From Candidatus Heimdallarchaeota archaeon (GTDB taxonomy: Archaea > Asgardarchaeota > Heimdallarchaeia > Heimdallarchaeales > Heimdallarchaeaceae), in contig JAEOTE010000036.1 of the NCBI GenBank assembly GCA_016839945.1, positions 1 through 29,905 of the forward strand: a DNA stretch of 29,905 nucleotides. The letters run 5' to 3'. Under the pieces are notes generated by a model. That model did no database searches, was not told where the DNA came from, and worked only from the letters and a program-made list of their open reading frames with translations. Below are positions 9,059 through 24,231 of this stretch, piece after piece (within the stretch, counting starts at the first letter, position 1; each line of letters opens with the position of its first letter). The position numbers and the translations under genes are program-made.

Positions 9059-9301
9059 TTAAGATGATTTCCCTTTAACAGCTGTATTCCTAAAATTCTT
9101 TCTAAGATAACTAGGATCCTTACCTCTTTCAAATAATTCTTTTATTGAATCTCGTTTTTCTGGTTCACATTTAGGACAGTATGCGTTGCAATAAGATCCT
9201 GAAGTTACTGCTTCTTCAAAGAAATCGTGATTTGAGAAATAAGGAAAATCACATACCCACTCTTCATCGCACTGTTCACATTTATGTTTGCAAAATCCCA
9301 T
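9059..9301 (-). CDS. Small Cys-rich putative metal-binding protein (paralog of 23992-24231)
   Basis: CKHKCEQCDEEWVCDFPYFS...YCNAYCPKC; coding status supported by conserved paralog in the same window. Confidence 0.85.
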   Translation of the reverse strand: MGFCKHKCEQCDEEWVCDFPYFSNHDFFEEAVTSGSYCNAYCPKCEPEKRDSIKELFERGKDPSYLRKNFRNTAVKGKSS

Positions 9302-9396
9302 TTTCAGCTCTCCTTTTCGTTTCTCAGAATATGTATCTTCTCTTTACATATAATCTTAATGGTTTTTGGTTGATTTTTGTCTAAACACTTAAGAAG

Positions 9397-9421
9397 GTTC
9401 TCTCTCAGAATAAGAGAGAAC
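9397..9421. promoter_or_regulatory. Inverted repeat in the divergent promoter region (possible operator or hairpin)
   Basis: GTTCTCTCT-cagaata-AGAGAGAAC, perfect 9-bp arms with 7-nt spacer, about 35 bp upstream of ATG 9455. Confidence 0.4.
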
Positions 9422-9454
9422 AATTATATAGGTATTTTTCTTTTTTTAGTATAT

Positions 9455-11044
9455 ATGAGATTTCTTCTTGTTTCAGATACTCATATTGGCGGAAGATTCG
9501 ATGAACTTATGTTTAATAAAGGAGTGGATATTTGTAATCATTTAGACGCTGATTATCTTGTTCACTGTGGTGATTTAACTAATGATGGTACTTTAGCTCA
9601 ATATGAAATTGCAAAACTTTATCTTGAAAAATTCAACAAAAATAAGAATCTTATAATCATTCCAGGAAATCATGATGTCAAAAATGTTGGTGATCTTTTA
9701 TGGGAAGAAATGATTGGCGAAAGATTTTTTTGTCATGAAGATGAAGTCAAAAAAGTAAAGATTCTTGCCTTGGATTCATCTGAACCTGATTCAGATACTG
9801 GAAGAATGGGTCCAAAAGGCATTCAAAGAATATATGATGAATTTGGTTCAATCCCAGAATACTGGTTGAAAGTATTGATTTTTCACCATCAAACTCTACC
9901 AATTCCATATACTGGAAGAGAGAGAAGCGCTATTTATGACGCAGGAGATGCAGTAAGAGCTATTCTTGATAATAATGTTCATCTAGTGTTAAATGGTCAT
10001 AGACACATAAGCAACTTTTATCGCATGTCAGATGGAGCTATGCAAGCTTGGATAGTAAACAGTGGGACATTGTCTTGTAAAAAGACTAGATATAGAGAAG
10101 AATATTCGATGATAGTAATAGATGTTGATCGAGAAAAAAATGATATATGTATTAGAGTTGTTTTACTCAATAAAGACCCCTATGAAGAACAAATAAAATG
10201 TCGTTGTAGATTTCAAGAAGTCATTCCTCCTATGAAGAAGGATCACTTAGCAACAATTGTTCAAATAGGAAATACTGATATCTGTGACACACATTTTAAT
10301 ACTGATTCTTTTAATAAAGGAGTAAAAGCAATAAATGATCTAAACTGTGATCTTGTTGTTCATTGTGGAGAAGTAACTGGCTCTGCATACTTACATGACT
10401 TTGAATGGTCAAAGGCACTATTGGAGCAAATTGATAAACCTAAATTAATAGTTCCAGGTGATGATGATGCTTATCCTCTAGGATATGAATTATTCCCCGA
10501 GTACATTGGAGATATGAATCCTACATTTAACAATGACGTATTGGATGTTTTAGGTTTCAATAGTTGTTTAATAGATGAAAAAACAGGAAGACTAGGAAGA
10601 GGAAATGTTGCTGAAATCGTTGATAAATTAACCAATTCAGAGAAACTTGGAGTTATTGCTTTTCATCATACTATAATTCCATTACCTAGAACAAAGCATG
10701 ATGCTGAATTAATGGATGCTGGCGATGTACTCTCAGCAATTGTAAAAAACAGAATCAACTTGGTTTTAACTGGAGCAAAAAATCAAGCAGGTTGCTGGCA
10801 AGTAAATGATACTGTTTTTGTAAATGCAGGAACCTTAAGCAGCTATAACATAACAAAACGAGAAGGAAATAGCTTCAATATAATTGATATTTATCAAACT
10901 AATATTGGTAAATACTATGAAATAGATGAATATCTTATTTCAAGTTTTAAAAGAAAGAATATAGGATTATTTCACGTATCTGATATAGCAAAACCTATTG
11001 AAGTTCCTCCTGTAATTGAATATTTACCAAGGAAACAAGTTTAA
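9455..11044 (+). CDS. Tandem calcineurin-like metallophosphoesterase (Icc/CpdA-like); second domain degenerate
   Basis: Domain 1: SDTH, GD, GNHD, HH, GHRH. Domain 2 equivalents: GNTD, GEV, GDDD, HH, GAKN. Likely start ATG 9455 (MRFLLVSDTH). Confidence 0.9.
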   Translation: MRFLLVSDTHIGGRFDELMFNKGVDICNHLDADYLVHCGDLTNDGTLAQYEIAKLYLEKFNKNKNLIIIPGNHDVKNVGDLLWEEMIGERFFCHEDEVKKVKILALDSSEPDSDTGRMGPKGIQRIYDEFGSIPEYWLKVLIFHHQTLPIPYTGRERSAIYDAGDAVRAILDNNVHLVLNGHRHISNFYRMSDGAMQAWIVNSGTLSCKKTRYREEYSMIVIDVDREKNDICIRVVLLNKDPYEEQIKCRCRFQEVIPPMKKDHLATIVQIGNTDICDTHFNTDSFNKGVKAINDLNCDLVVHCGEVTGSAYLHDFEWSKALLEQIDKPKLIVPGDDDAYPLGYELFPEYIGDMNPTFNNDVLDVLGFNSCLIDEKTGRLGRGNVAEIVDKLTNSEKLGVIAFHHTIIPLPRTKHDAELMDAGDVLSAIVKNRINLVLTGAKNQAGCWQVNDTVFVNAGTLSSYNITKREGNSFNIIDIYQTNIGKYYEIDEYLISSFKRKNIGLFHVSDIAKPIEVPPVIEYLPRKQV

Positions 11045-11138
11045 AACTTTAAATTCTCAAGTTTCAAGGCCTTTTATTGTATATTACGTTTCTCTGGTTG
11101 GAAAAACTTTTTATTTTTTGAAAAGGATACTAGAACTT

Positions 11139-12422
11139 GTGACTACAAAAGTTCAAGGTCATGAAAAAGAAGATTCTTTTCCATTGAAAGTAAAGAATCT
11201 ATCTAAAGAAATGGGTTTGTGGATAGAGGAAGCTGAGAGAAGAATTTTCTCATTGGGTACAGGAGATAGAATCAGTCCTATAGCAGTAAAGATAATGCAA
11301 ATAGGTTTTAGTAAAATTCTTTATGCTGCAAATGAACTTGGAGCTGATTTAGAAGAATGTAAACCTTACATTGTTTTTGCTCCTGATTGTACTTGTACTT
11401 TTAATAAAATCAGAGTGGAAAGAGGATTTAGTTATGGAGCTTTAATTAAAGGGGATTTCTCTGGCATGATCTCAACTAGCAATGCGATGCCAAATGCTTG
11501 CGGATACACTATTGCTGAATTAACCACTCAAAGAACAGATGTTTCTTTAAAGAATCATCTAATTCAGAAACAAAAGGAGATTGGTAAAGATCACTTACAG
11601 CAATTAGGGAAAGGGAATCATTTTTCAGCCGTTTATTGTGTCAAGGATTCAATAACTGGGGAAGATACTATGCGAAGAATGATTAATGTTCACAGCAGCG
11701 GAAAATTAGGAACACAATTTCTTTATGATTTGAGTTGGTTAAGTGAGATAGAAGGATATCACAAAGTAGAGACACCTCATGGTCCAGTAGAATTACTGGA
11801 AGGAGAAGCTAAAAAACAATATTTAGATAAATACAATGAGGGTGATAAAACAAATGCTAACTATAGATTTGAGGTTTTGGGAGAGATACTAGGAGAAGGA
11901 ACTTTCAAGATTTTGGAAGAAATAACTCATCAAGGATTATCAAGAGATGGTAGATACCATAGATTAGGAGTTCAAGTTCATGATGGATTAATTCCAATTG
12001 CGTTTAATTCTGAAGAAGGTTTAATTCTTGCAGAAACAAAACCCAATCTCAGTAAAGAGCTCCTAGAAACATGGAAGTATAAAGAACAGGTAGAGGAGTT
12101 GGGTTTAGAAAAGGAACTATCACAAATAGATTTCTCTCCTCATGGAGGAGGATATGAATTTCTTTACCCAGTTGAAAAATTTACAATACACCTAGATAAA
12201 AGAGGTATAGGTTATCTTGAAGCAGAATTAAAGCCTGAAAAAAAACCAAAGATACAAAAGAAAGTTACTTATTTCCGAGAACTTAAAGAATACATGTGTT
12301 TCAGAAGAAAACTTCCTTTAATGAGAGAGGTTTTTAGAGCTGATTTAATTAAACACATCTACGATTTAGAACCTTTAATACAAATATACCCTCTAGTAAG
12401 TATAGTAGGTGGAACACTCTAA
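11139..12422 (+). CDS. Divergent RtcB-fold protein (RNA ligase/guanylyltransferase superfamily)
   Basis: Colinear RtcB-like motifs: PD...GFSYG, PNACG, LGKGNHF, VHSSG, THQ, HRLG, SPHGGG, C-terminal LEPL; start uncertain (GTG 11139 or TTG 11118). Confidence 0.75.
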   Translation: MTTKVQGHEKEDSFPLKVKNLSKEMGLWIEEAERRIFSLGTGDRISPIAVKIMQIGFSKILYAANELGADLEECKPYIVFAPDCTCTFNKIRVERGFSYGALIKGDFSGMISTSNAMPNACGYTIAELTTQRTDVSLKNHLIQKQKEIGKDHLQQLGKGNHFSAVYCVKDSITGEDTMRRMINVHSSGKLGTQFLYDLSWLSEIEGYHKVETPHGPVELLEGEAKKQYLDKYNEGDKTNANYRFEVLGEILGEGTFKILEEITHQGLSRDGRYHRLGVQVHDGLIPIAFNSEEGLILAETKPNLSKELLETWKYKEQVEELGLEKELSQIDFSPHGGGYEFLYPVEKFTIHLDKRGIGYLEAELKPEKKPKIQKKVTYFRELKEYMCFRRKLPLMREVFRADLIKHIYDLEPLIQIYPLVSIVGGTL

Positions 12423-12447
12423 TATATTAAGAACTTAAATAGGGGAT

Positions 12448-13194
12448 GTGATGTTCTCCAGAAAGAATACATGGATAATAGCTCATAGAGGGGATTCTGG
12501 AAATTATCCCGAAAATTCTCTGAGAGCTTTTTGGTCAGCTATTGAATCGAAAGCTGATATAATAGAATTGGATTTGCAATTAACAGCTGATAACCATGTA
12601 GTTGTTTTTCATGATAAAACAATAGAAAGAGTCTTCCAGAGAGATGCAGACAAAACTATTAGAGATTTTAAGCTTAAAAAGCTCAAACAATGGGATATTG
12701 GCAGTTGGTTCAGTAAAGATTTTTCTGGTATGAAAATTCCTACTCTTGAAGAAGTGATTAATTCGTTACCAAAGTTCACCCCTCTGATTTTGGAATTGAA
12801 AAACAATGAAGACAAATTTACAATAAATGTCATTAATCAATTAGATGATTTGAATAAAGAATTAGGTATTGGATATATATCGGTAAGAAACACTGAAACA
12901 TACAAAAGAGCTAAAGATATAACTGATAAATACAAAATTGGTTTAATGCAAAAGAAGAGAACACCAAGAGAAACACTTGATATTATAACGAGAGAAGAAA
13001 TAGAAATTCTTCAGATTCGTTGGAGGGAATGGACTAGTGAAGAATGGGATGTTCTTTTAGAAACAGATACAATCATAACTGCATTTTTTGCAGACGAAAT
13101 TGAGGATTTTCAATTTTTAGTTTCTAAGAAAATAAATGGAATACTAACAAATTATCCTGCTAGACTTGCACAGTTTTTAAAAAGAAATATATAG
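12448..13194 (+). CDS. Glycerophosphodiester phosphodiesterase (GDPD/UgpQ family)
   Basis: IAHRG.SG.YPENSL.AF, IELDLQLTAD...VVFHD, IPTLEE, LELK, GILTNYP. Confidence 0.93.
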   Translation: MMFSRKNTWIIAHRGDSGNYPENSLRAFWSAIESKADIIELDLQLTADNHVVVFHDKTIERVFQRDADKTIRDFKLKKLKQWDIGSWFSKDFSGMKIPTLEEVINSLPKFTPLILELKNNEDKFTINVINQLDDLNKELGIGYISVRNTETYKRAKDITDKYKIGLMQKKRTPRETLDIITREEIEILQIRWREWTSEEWDVLLETDTIITAFFADEIEDFQFLVSKKINGILTNYPARLAQFLKRNI

Positions 13195-20695: not shown

Positions 20696-22855
20696 CTAAG
20701 TTAGTGATTCAACCCAAATTGGTCCAATATATGTATGTCTTCCATTATCTCCAACAATTCTTATGAGATAGAAATCTATACCATTTGTTTGTAATTGATC
20801 AGGATTAAATATGAGATTATTACTATACTCATTGATAAAATAATCATCTCCTATTTTTATGCAGCTTTCTCTTCCATAAGAGGTCCCTGTAATTAATTCA
20901 GTGTCAGTGAAGTAGACTCTAGCTAAAGGAGTATTGATGAGGAAAGTTTGTAGCAACTCACCATTTTTCATTATCTCAACCTCTGCATTCCAATTGGGTG
21001 ACCATCCAGCATTTATTGATGCAGCTGTATGATATCCACTTGCAGGTGCACCATCTTGAGCAATGAAGATTTCTATGTTTCTGGGTATACTTGTATTAGC
21101 TACGGTGAGAGTAGAGTTTCCACCAACACCCATACCATTAATGGTAAAATCTACGATGGGTCTTCCAAAATCTGAGTTAGCATAGATGAATCTATTTTCT
21201 AGTTGAGAGAAGATTGATGATCTTGTTAAATCAGAAGCATAAACAGCTGTAAGTCCTCCTGGATAGGGTTTATCGAATCTAGTCCACCAATAAGTGTAAG
21301 GTCGTTGATGTGCAATATAGGCTTTTGTATGAGCAATAGTGTGTCCAGGATGTCCATCATGACCATCACTTGAAGCATATAGTGATAACCTTAGTCCCAT
21401 TCTTAGTGCATCAACAATTGAACATCCATTGATAGGATAAGGTGGGGGACCATACATTCCTCTATAGCTTAGCTCATGATAAGGATCATAAAGACTATCT
21501 CCGTGTGTAGAAGTTACTTCAGCTATTTTGACATACTTTGGATTGTAATAGAACCAATCCTGCAGGAAAGCTTCTTCAACAGTGTGGTGAGGGAGAGCTA
21601 GAGCTCTAGAACCAGTATTAGTTGTGAAATCATCAAGTAAATCCCAGAGTTCCAAGGGTGTGCCTATAAGACGATAGCTAATGAGAGGATCTTGAGGTAA
21701 TTGATCATTATCAAAGATACAAGTAAAATGACCAGTTTGATGATTGGTAAATTCCATTCCAAGAAAAGCTACAAATTGATTTGGAGAGTTTTTTGTATTA
21801 GTTAAAGTAATATATTTTTGAACCCAATTTGAAGCCATCTGCATTATTTCACCATGTTCAGTTAAAGCAAAGAAATCCAGACACGCTACTTCCTGTGCAT
21901 AGAAAAATGAATGATCCGGAGTTCCACTTCCATCAGAATAAATTGAGTGTGAATGAATGTCTCCCCAGTAAATATTCATACCAGTATTTTGAACAATTAT
22001 TGGATTACTATAAAATGTCTCTCCTGTAAAAGAATCTGTTACTAGAATGTAATGAATTCCTATTGTGCTAATGGTGACTTGAAACTTATGCAAACCATTA
22101 TCTTTTTCATTATTAATCAGATATGCACTATCTGAAGGCAACTTCCTTCCAGAGAATGTAAACGGAATAGGAAGTATTGCTGAAACAGAACTAAGAGAAG
22201 AGAAATCTGTTGAGTTATATGATTCTAATGAAAAATCTACTCTTCCATTGTATGTAGCACTTACTCGCTCATATCTGTCCCAACTCTGTACGGTGATTGT
22301 AAAGGGAGAATCTGGTTGAACAGTTGAAGGCGCATGAACCCATAGCAATGCTGTTTTATTATTGAACATTACACCAAAATCTAAACTAACAACTGACCAA
22401 ATTGAAATTGGAGTTAGAGCTAAACAAAATAAAAGAGTGAATCTTACAACTTTGTTGAGTTTAAGCTGTTTGATTTTTTTGATGTTTAAAGTAGTTTTGA
22501 AATCTTTATAGAATTCAAACTTGTTTAAAAATTTATGAATACTGAAAAGAATAAGATAACTACAAACAGTACCTATTGTAAGAGAGAATATCAAGAATAA
22601 TGGGTACATACCAGTAATTACATCAAATCCTTTATTCAAAGCAAATGTCCCTAAAGAAGTAGCAAGAGCTAGAATTAAACCATGCCATCTCCATTTATTC
22701 TTGAATACTATAAAATAAACAACTCCTATTGTTAAAGCTATGAAATTAAAGAAGAATAGAAAACTAGAAACTACTCCTAAGATATAAACAATTACTCTTA
22801 ATACCTTTAGAATAATGGATATAATCTGATCTTTTTTCTTAAAATCAAAATTCAA
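20696..22855 (-). CDS. Membrane-anchored PHP-like metallohydrolase (DUF3604/CehA-McbA-like)
   Basis: About four N-terminal TM helices, Ig-like segment, YWGDIHSHSIYSDG, DFFALTEH, GMEFT...GH, LPHH, ASSDGHDGHPG, GGLTAVYA..LTR..IF. Confidence 0.82.
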   Translation of the reverse strand: MNFDFKKKDQIISIILKVLRVIVYILGVVSSFLFFFNFIALTIGVVYFIVFKNKWRWHGLILALATSLGTFALNKGFDVITGMYPLFLIFSLTIGTVCSYLILFSIHKFLNKFEFYKDFKTTLNIKKIKQLKLNKVVRFTLLFCLALTPISIWSVVSLDFGVMFNNKTALLWVHAPSTVQPDSPFTITVQSWDRYERVSATYNGRVDFSLESYNSTDFSSLSSVSAILPIPFTFSGRKLPSDSAYLINNEKDNGLHKFQVTISTIGIHYILVTDSFTGETFYSNPIIVQNTGMNIYWGDIHSHSIYSDGSGTPDHSFFYAQEVACLDFFALTEHGEIMQMASNWVQKYITLTNTKNSPNQFVAFLGMEFTNHQTGHFTCIFDNDQLPQDPLISYRLIGTPLELWDLLDDFTTNTGSRALALPHHTVEEAFLQDWFYYNPKYVKIAEVTSTHGDSLYDPYHELSYRGMYGPPPYPINGCSIVDALRMGLRLSLYASSDGHDGHPGHTIAHTKAYIAHQRPYTYWWTRFDKPYPGGLTAVYASDLTRSSIFSQLENRFIYANSDFGRPIVDFTINGMGVGGNSTLTVANTSIPRNIEIFIAQDGAPASGYHTAASINAGWSPNWNAEVEIMKNGELLQTFLINTPLARVYFTDTELITGTSYGRESCIKIGDDYFINEYSNNLIFNPDQLQTNGIDFYLIRIVGDNGRHTYIGPIWVESLT

Positions 22856-23991: not shown

Positions 23992-24231
23992 ATGTTAAAA
24001 TGTAAACATGCATGTGTTGATTGTGATGAGACATGGGAATGCTCATTCCCATACTTTTCTGAATTCAAATATTTCAAAACTACAGTGGAAAATGGTTACT
24101 ATTGTAATGCTTTTTGTCCTTCTTGTCAAACAGAGAAGAGAAAAGATATAGATGATTTGTTTGAAGATATGTCAGAAACAGGATATATCAACTCTTTCTA
24201 TGAACAAAACCTGAAAACACAAGAAGTATAG
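23992..24231 (+). CDS. Small Cys-rich putative metal-binding protein (paralog of 9059-9301)
   Basis: CKHACVDCDETWECSFPYFS...YCNAFCPSC; GAGG upstream of ATG 23992. Confidence 0.85.
   Translation: MLKCKHACVDCDETWECSFPYFSEFKYFKTTVENGYYCNAFCPSCQTEKRKDIDDLFEDMSETGYINSFYEQNLKTQEV

Follow-up and report, generated by a model that had tools for sequence, protein, structure and literature searches.

A stretch of 29,905 nucleotides from a Candidatus Heimdallarchaeota archaeon (assembly GCA_016839945.1, contig JAEOTE010000036.1; hereafter the window) carries, on its forward strand, three genes encoding a tandem metallophosphoesterase (MPE), a divergent protein related in fold to the RNA ligase RtcB (RtcB-like) and a glycerophosphodiester phosphodiesterase (GDPD). 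These genes form a real, conserved and dispensable three-gene module. As judged from alignments, the RtcB-like protein has an intact catalytic set but departs from RtcB in its nucleotide pocket and in its basic residues. The reading we favour, tentatively and at somewhat less than an even chance, is that the trio serves Heimdallarchaeia as an accessory module whose substrate is a phosphodiester-linked small molecule, of the kind represented by glycerophosphodiesters or polyol phosphates, and not ordinary RNA ends.

A conserved and dispensable three-gene module

The MPE gene (9455..11044, +; 529 aa), the RtcB-like gene (11139..12422, +; 427 aa) and the GDPD gene (12448..13194, +; 248 aa) are co-oriented and separated by 94 bp and 25 bp, matching the arrangement described in the original prediction (gaps of about 95 and 25 bp). 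The first was assigned by Pfam (PF00149/PF12850), motif conservation, an AlphaFold2 (AF2) model and Foldseek, the second by homologs, structure and hhalign, and the third by Pfam (PF03009) and a structure match. The GTG start of the RtcB-like gene at 11139 is consistent with the N-termini of homologs in the alignment; the GDPD has an alternative ATG start at 12451. Given the 25-bp gap, the RtcB-like and GDPD genes are likely co-transcribed. The window has a G+C content of ~31%, and the source genome comprises 3.0 Mb in 186 contigs and is 88% complete.

Conservation of the linkage was assessed in 17 loci with enough flanking sequence from the window's family (f1) and its sister family (f3), namely the window, 13 others and three from other f1 genera. 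The GDPD gene adjoins the RtcB-like gene in 16 of the 17, the exception being G120, in which a DegV gene, whose product we take to be fatty-acid binding, stands between the two. A tandem MPE gene lies within 6 kb of the RtcB-like gene in 14 of the 17 loci and is missing in G035, G036 and G120 (the contig of G036 stops right after the GDPD start). Gene order and strand vary, with MPE–RtcB-like–GDPD, RtcB-like–GDPD–MPE, and divergent or convergent forms, indicating that the association has been retained through rearrangements. Spacing is closest between the RtcB-like and GDPD genes (−4 to ~100 bp), and the same co-oriented trio recurs in two closed genomes of another genus of the family. The neighbourhood proposed from the window alone is thus conserved: homologs of the RtcB-like gene are not scattered over unrelated contexts, and the association spans genera and families. 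No further gene is shared among the 17 loci beyond genus-level synteny. In the RtcB-like family at large, occasional neighbours, in addition to the DegV gene of G120, encode a SerB-like ACT-HAD phosphatase (in family f25), PIG-L and transporters of the major facilitator superfamily (MFS).

The genes also appear and disappear together across 41 related genomes, which, being relatives, are not independent samples. Twenty of these genomes contain both the RtcB-like gene of the window's type (type II, defined below) and the GDPD ortholog, another 20 contain neither, and one has an RtcB-like gene of type I alone. An orthologous MPE (at least 43% identity) is present in 19 of the 20 genomes with the trio, the exception being G003, whose contig breaks off within the RtcB-like gene. 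Where the trio is absent, the only MPE kept is a paralog of 32–39% identity, which the source genome also has on another contig. In the genus, a second tandem-MPE paralog of this kind (32–34% identical) occurs in nearly all genomes, with or without the trio (G000:C184:2379-3803 in the source genome).

Presence of the trio varies in at least four genera (8 of 25 genomes in g1, the source genome counted, 3 of 4 in g3, and 1 of 2 in each of g7 and g9). At the empty site of four congeners (G001, G005, G008 and G011), the genes for MgtE, a hypothetical protein, a PadR-like protein, the hypothetical protein hyp-8276 and a TPR protein are collinear, with only 200–280 bp between hyp-8276 and the TPR gene. 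The block absent from these sites, ~4.3 kb, consists of the trio and a small gene for a Cys-rich protein, which together therefore constitute a clean presence/absence cassette. Neither flanking direct repeats nor mobility genes were found around it. Within the genus, the RtcB-like protein is only 47% identical between the source genome and G004, compared with 77% for the MPE. The possibility that horizontal transfer has exchanged the RtcB-like gene among members of the genus was rejected, as the identity matrices show only faster divergence and no clear foreign allele.

Fold, catalytic centre and family of the RtcB-like protein

The match of the RtcB-like protein to the Pfam RtcB model (PF01139; E = 0.23, 11.1 bits, residues 138–179) falls below the cut-off of 27, NCBIfam returned no match to the protein, and a search of the genome with PF01139 found the canonical RtcB copy alone. 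Because of this sub-threshold score, the fold was checked by structure. An AF2 model built on 33 homologs (predicted local distance difference test score, pLDDT, 88.7; predicted template modelling score, pTM, 0.88) was compared with the PDB using Foldseek, and the top 15 matches were all RtcB (E from 7e-8 to 5e-4, probability 1.0), with unrelated folds appearing from E = 8e-3 on. VIA-align, run against all representatives, aligned 301 residues of the model with T. thermophilus RtcB TTHA1785 (2epg) at Z = 19.9 and a root-mean-square deviation of 3.9 Å, the second-best match having Z = 5.4. At the profile level, the family reached P. horikoshii RtcB in the PDB at only E = 0.11, and a local hhalign comparison with 31 Asgard RtcBs gave E = 2.2e-5 and 76% probability over 376 columns. 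The predicted structure is that of a true RtcB fold, as the original prediction had proposed for the middle gene. The sole phmmer match in the PDB, a gasdermin, was judged to be due to chance, and a search for longer, fused RtcB-like forms found none of at least 810 aa.

In the human and P. horikoshii RtcBs, roles have been assigned to the residues that bind metals A and B, to an Asn in contact with the phosphate and to the His that acts as nucleophile (PMC8668186). Profile and hhalign alignments place N160-H161-F162 of the RtcB-like protein on N202-H203-F204 of the P. horikoshii enzyme (PhRtcB), H185 on H234, H264 (in HQG) on H329, the His of the HN motif, and H335 (in PHGGGYE) on H404, the guanylylated His of HGAGR. 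Accordingly, the metal ligands His203, His234 and His329 of PhRtcB, together with Asn202, all have a match, and these catalytic residues do not vary among 33 close or among 45 distant members of the family. The invariant motifs of the RtcB-like protein are PD83xT, N119xC121G, GN160H161F162, H185xSG, H264QG and PH335GGGYE. In the AF2 model, the invariant Cys121-Gly122 pair begins a strand, as Cys98-Gly99 does in RtcB; of the Asp95-x-x-Cys98 segment of RtcB, which hhalign left unaligned, the Asp95 position is occupied by Pro118, with the invariant Asn119 one residue off.

The guanine base is contacted in RtcB by Glu230, Ser409 and Lys504 of the human enzyme, corresponding to Glu206, Ser385 and Lys480 of P. 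horikoshii (PMC8668186). Type II proteins have Ala or Gly at the Glu206 position and end in SIPGG without a Lys, so that the contacts of Glu206 and Lys480 are not retained. The Arg residues of HSGSR and HGAGR are both lost as well, the latter being replaced by Tyr, and the proteins are acidic, with a median isoelectric point (pI) of 5.9 and a net charge of −10, compared with 8.6 and +5 for canonical Asgard RtcB.

The absence of the Glu and Lys that bind guanine, and of an Asp95 equivalent, would fit a protein that performs no nucleotidyl transfer at all and serves either purely as a hydrolase, opening five-membered cyclic phosphates as in the first step of RtcB, or as a scaffold for the two phosphodiesterases. 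RtcB itself has cyclic phosphodiesterase activity (PMC8668186). The pseudo-enzyme domain of the MPE, described below, indicates that non-catalytic parts are tolerated in the module. However, all 45 sequences compared have the nucleophile His335, Asn160, which contacts the phosphate, and Phe162, which provides stacking. This argues for a retained nucleotide adduct, and we regard a role as hydrolase or scaffold as very unlikely, the least probable of the readings considered here. A further point against it is that the cyclic phosphodiesterase step of RtcB is, according to work from the Shuman laboratory, reportedly GTP-dependent.

A separate observation concerns the ortholog in G006 (L022:5998-7302, −), which contains a single in-frame TGA at the nearly invariant Trp200 (NLD*LNG) in a frame that is otherwise intact; it is most simply explained by a TGG-to-TGA change or a sequencing error.

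A word-index search recovered 72 relatives of the RtcB-like protein, 70 of which, at >40% identity, are referred to here as type II. The named ones all come from Heimdall-, Kari- or Thor-archaeal metagenome-assembled genomes (MAGs), and all are annotated as hypothetical but one, an 'RtcB family protein'; an additional word-index search yielded no new relatives. An exhaustive search added ~90 more clusters at 50% identity, comprising proteins 23–34% identical, mostly 390–415 aa long and devoid of Pfam domains (type I); for type I as a whole, the typical length is about 400–420 aa. A profile of both types matched 141 of 301 Asgard genomes, including 63 of 68 and 21 of 21 in two families. Whereas type I is also found in MAGs of Altiarchaeales and Geothermarchaeales, with which a protein atlas agrees, the distribution of type II is patchy and covers one Heimdallarchaeial order and family f25, which belongs to the same class but lies outside that order. 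No Pfam, NCBIfam or PADLOC model covers the RtcB-like family, and a literature search, the scope of which did not take in the RNA-repair survey of Burroughs and Aravind 2016, found no paper on the family or on a link between RtcB and GDPD.

The two types are 25–32% identical and have the invariant catalytic residues in common. Unlike type II, type I has an acidic or amide residue (Asp, Asn or Glu) where RtcB has Glu206, and its penultimate residue is a Lys; it therefore probably still binds GTP as RtcB does. In 30 Asgard loci of type I, the commonest neighbour (17 of 30) encodes an HD-domain hydrolase of 190–245 aa, with YpgQ, YedJ and similar proteins as the closest solved relatives; a GDPD gene follows in four loci and an MPE gene in three, and one of these MPEs is a 553-aa tandem protein 40% identical to that of the window. 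The RtcB-like family is thus tied to phosphohydrolases of three superfamilies. The only fusion seen was P0120, a metagenomic protein of 743 aa with an APH-type phosphotransferase/kinase domain N-terminal to a type I RtcB-like domain. Genomes of family f23 contain two type I copies each, the second of which (L105-L107) is part of a conserved block, where it follows genes for a prolyl-oligopeptidase-like protein and a gamma-glutamyltranspeptidase and precedes that of an unannotated protein of 304–311 aa.

Partner enzymes and candidate substrates

The GDPD is a confident member of its family (PF03009; E = 1.1e-29, 104.7 bits against a cut-off of 23.6) and matches the solved bacterial GDPD 2pz0 from end to end (E = 2.5e-25). 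It retains the HR, ExD, H and ExK motifs, whose roles are general knowledge of the family, as HRG (13–15), ELD (41–43), FHD (54–56) and ELK (116–118), and its N-terminus has no signal-like stretch, as in cytoplasmic enzymes of UgpQ type.

The MPE contains two Metallophos stretches according to Pfam (3e-19), in line with the tandem architecture first proposed for it, but the two halves are not equivalent. All five calcineurin-type metal motifs (DxH, GD, GNHD, HH and GHRH) are kept in the N-terminal domain and are invariant in 10–11 orthologs, whereas those of the C-terminal domain, otherwise conserved, have degenerated to NT, GE/Gx, PGxxD and GxKN; the protein is therefore best described as an active domain fused to a pseudo-enzyme domain. 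Foldseek neighbours of its AF2 model (pLDDT 83.9) are SMPDL3B, the glycerophosphodiesterase GpdQ, Rv0805, SMPDL3A and purple acid phosphatases, with Mre11 and SbcD ranking lower. Among NCBIfam models, YfcE scored above the cut-off and CpdA and SpdA below it, while matches to 'anti-phage phosphoesterase' models were weaker and partial. Both partners, the GDPD and the MPE, are of small-molecule type.

The scores of the MPE N-terminal domain to the CpdA and SpdA models and, weakly, to the anti-phage models bring up a nucleotide-signal or conflict module as an alternative. The RtcB-like protein would then make or re-close a cyclic or linear (oligo)nucleotide messenger with cyclic-phosphate or 3'-phosphate and 5'-hydroxyl ends, and the phosphodiesterases (an MPE of the cyclic-nucleotide-phosphodiesterase type, the GDPD and, in type I loci, the HD protein) would destroy it, in virus defence or stress signalling. 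The cassette-like presence or absence at a syntenic site, the fast evolution of the RtcB-like protein relative to the MPE and the nucleotide-hydrolase character of the type I HD partner are all compatible with such a role. However, PADLOC returned for the trio only a generic MPE match (PDC-S10, 2.9e-13), with the RtcB-like protein and the GDPD unmatched, no sensor, effector, nuclease, integrase or flanking repeat was seen, and the near-universal occurrence of type I in some Asgard families is unlike that of a defence gene. We therefore consider a signalling or defence role improbable.

Between the two alternatives offered by the original prediction, a nucleic-acid heal-and-seal module and RtcB chemistry repurposed for a small-molecule phosphodiester, the evidence leans towards the second and favours the first less, neither being demonstrated. 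It leans this way because the GDPD is UgpQ-like and the MPE is nearest to GpdQ, Rv0805 and SMPDL3, and because the RtcB-like protein is acidic and has lost guanine contacts and two Arg residues in a genome that encodes canonical RtcB, archease and RtcA elsewhere. We also counted in its favour the DegV, SerB-like HAD, PIG-L and MFS neighbours, the APH-kinase fusion and the HD nucleotide hydrolase of type I. Under the small-molecule reading, the GDPD and the GpdQ/Rv0805-like N-terminal domain of the MPE would cut phosphodiesters to leave a phosphomonoester or, on a vicinal diol, a five-membered cyclic phosphate; in glycerol or inositol, the latter would be a chemical analogue of the RNA 2',3'-cyclic phosphate handled by RtcB. 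The predicted two-metal centre of the RtcB-like protein (Cys121, His161, His185, His264 and Asn160) and the nucleophilic His335 might then form a His-nucleoside monophosphate (NMP) adduct, with a nucleotide that is probably not recognised in the way RtcB recognises GTP. The phosphate would be activated as a nucleoside diphosphate (NDP) ester and attacked by a hydroxyl, resulting either in re-joining to a new acceptor or in cyclisation or ring opening. We infer catalysis through His335-NMP, and with it the nucleotide used, the identity of the substrate and the direction of the reaction, joining or hydrolysis.

The most serious competitor is a non-canonical end-processing system for RNA or oligonucleotides, in which the RtcB-like protein would seal or cap 3'-phosphate ends of RNA or DNA, for instance in damaged tRNA or rRNA, while the MPE and GDPD trim phosphate ends as 2',3'-cyclic phosphodiesterase or phosphatase. 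Calcineurin-type and HD phosphoesterases do heal RNA ends in Pnkp and in CCA-adding enzymes, the His, Cys and Asn set of RtcB appears to be fully kept, and the patchy, dispensable distribution resembles that of accessory RNA-repair operons such as RtcB2-PrfH. Yet canonical RtcB (546.6 bits to PF01139), archease and RtcA are all encoded on other contigs of the source genome, and 59 of the 61 Asgard genomes sampled have a canonical RtcB, so that the RtcB-like protein is not needed as the genome's RNA ligase; none of the three is in the window, from which the original prediction had correctly reported archease and RtcA to be absent. Further, GDPDs have no known nucleic-acid activity and that of the window is a typical UgpQ-like enzyme, the MPE is closer to GpdQ, Rv0805 and SMPDL3 than to Mre11, and a 3'-phosphatase would remove the very end that an RtcB-type ligase requires. 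The acidic RtcB-like protein without the HSGSR and HGAGR Arg residues and guanine contacts fits RNA poorly, and a scan of the window revealed no Rfam family, tRNA or other RNA gene or motif. On balance, action on RNA ends appears unlikely, if less so than a signalling role.

Several observations weigh against the small-molecule reading. We know of no activity of the RtcB fold beyond nucleic-acid end joining or capping, that is, RNA or DNA 3'-phosphate ligation and capping. Genomic context supplies a hint of RNA as well: in six Altiarchaeales loci recovered by a scan with a single protein, four of them titled Altiarchaeales or Altiarchaeia and all mutually close relatives, the type I gene lies divergently beside that of the GCD14/TrmI tRNA m1A methyltransferase in five of the six, and in some Asgard loci type I adjoins the gene for methionyl-tRNA synthetase. 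In family f4, the RtcB-like gene adjoins the TupABC tungstate transporter, with the GDPD and MPE orthologs elsewhere, so that the trio is unlinked. (A PstS-like assignment of this f4 neighbour, which would have suggested a link to phosphate scavenging, was dropped because NCBIfam identifies it as a TupA/TupB-C tungstate transporter.) As for the catalytic centre, since hhalign left the segment unaligned, we infer the equivalence of Cys121 and Cys98 from motif and secondary-structure position, without a residue-level structural alignment, and with Pro118/Asn119 in place of an Asp95 equivalent, the metal site may not be the same as in RtcB. Finally, the MPE gene and the RtcB-like/GDPD pair may belong to different transcripts. 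The MPE/RtcB-like intergenic region (11045..11138, +) contains a possible internal promoter, with a T/A-rich TATA-like box ~25–35 nt 5' of the RtcB-like GTG that is kept, along with the following bases, in two congeners; another box, TTATATA-like, precedes the MPE ATG by ~25–30 nt, suggesting that the MPE possibly forms its own transcription unit.

A more specific version of the small-molecule reading casts the RtcB-like protein as a soluble small-molecule phosphodiester synthetase. After attaching a nucleotide to its own His335, the enzyme would turn a phosphomonoester of glycerol or another polyol, or the corresponding five-membered cyclic phosphate, into an NDP-alcohol, which it would then link to a hydroxyl acceptor; the GDPD and MPE would supply or recycle substrates. 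This proposal is unlikely, marginally more so than action on RNA ends; if true, it would mean RNA-ligase chemistry acting on lipid head groups or compatible solutes, as an alternative to membrane CDP-alcohol phosphotransferases. More generally, the RtcB-like family keeps the catalytic centre of RtcB and yet is genetically tied to small-molecule phosphodiesterases. Should the substrate prove not to be RNA, RtcB chemistry would reach into metabolism or the biology of lipid head groups in the archaea most closely related to eukaryotes; should it be RNA, the module would represent an accessory route of repair that is new and relies on healing enzymes one would not have expected.

Flanking features and relation to known systems

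Upstream of the trio, a gene for a Cys-rich protein of 80 aa (9059..9301, −) diverges from the MPE gene and lies within the block absent at empty sites. It adjoins the trio in only three loci of the genus, and in G011 its homolog is located beyond the TPR gene, making its status as a fixed module member doubtful; a paralog is encoded elsewhere in the window (23992–24231, +). The region between the two divergent genes (9302..9454, no strand assigned) is a putative promoter region and holds, just upstream of the MPE TATA-like box, a perfect 9-nt inverted repeat at 9397–9421 (GTTCTCTCT-N7-AGAGAGAAC). As the repeat is not kept in the corresponding regions of G004 and G015, it was rejected as an operator. 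Unrelated to the cassette, a 719-aa protein with a DUF3604 match is encoded at 20696–22855 (−), beside a TetR-like regulator.

To our knowledge, no enzyme class but RtcB uses a His-GMP intermediate to join a 3'-phosphate to a 5'-hydroxyl, and every characterised member of the class acts on nucleic acids. With canonical RtcB (PF01139; PH1602, TTHA1785 and human RTCB), the RtcB-like protein shares the fold, the motif order, the Asn-His-Phe motif, the three metal-binding His residues and a PHGxG loop with the nucleophilic His, and it has a Cys-Gly pair that is probably equivalent to that of RtcB. It differs in being only 10–14% identical and ~60–80 residues shorter, in the changes of HN to HQG and of HGAGR to HGGGYE, and in its genomic company: the gene is never found beside archease, RtcA or RtcR but accompanies those for GDPD and MPE, and coexists with a canonical copy.

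The heal-and-seal systems Pnkp/Hen1 and T4 Pnkp-Rnl likewise pair a calcineurin-type phosphoesterase with a ligase that forms a covalent enzyme-NMP, and are accessory and operon-encoded. In contrast to the trio, they carry a P-loop kinase and a methyltransferase and no GDPD, and their ligases are ATP-dependent, of Rnl type, and need 3'-hydroxyl and 5'-phosphate ends. A third comparison is with glycerophosphodiester metabolism, represented by the GDPDs UgpQ and GlpQ and the MPE-type GpdQ. The GDPD of the window is a typical small cytoplasmic UgpQ-like enzyme, and GpdQ, together with Rv0805, is among the closest solved structures of the MPE N-terminal domain. The known Ugp, Glp and GpdQ systems, however, operate without an RtcB-fold protein, and the MPE of the window departs from them as a fused pair of one active and one degenerate domain.

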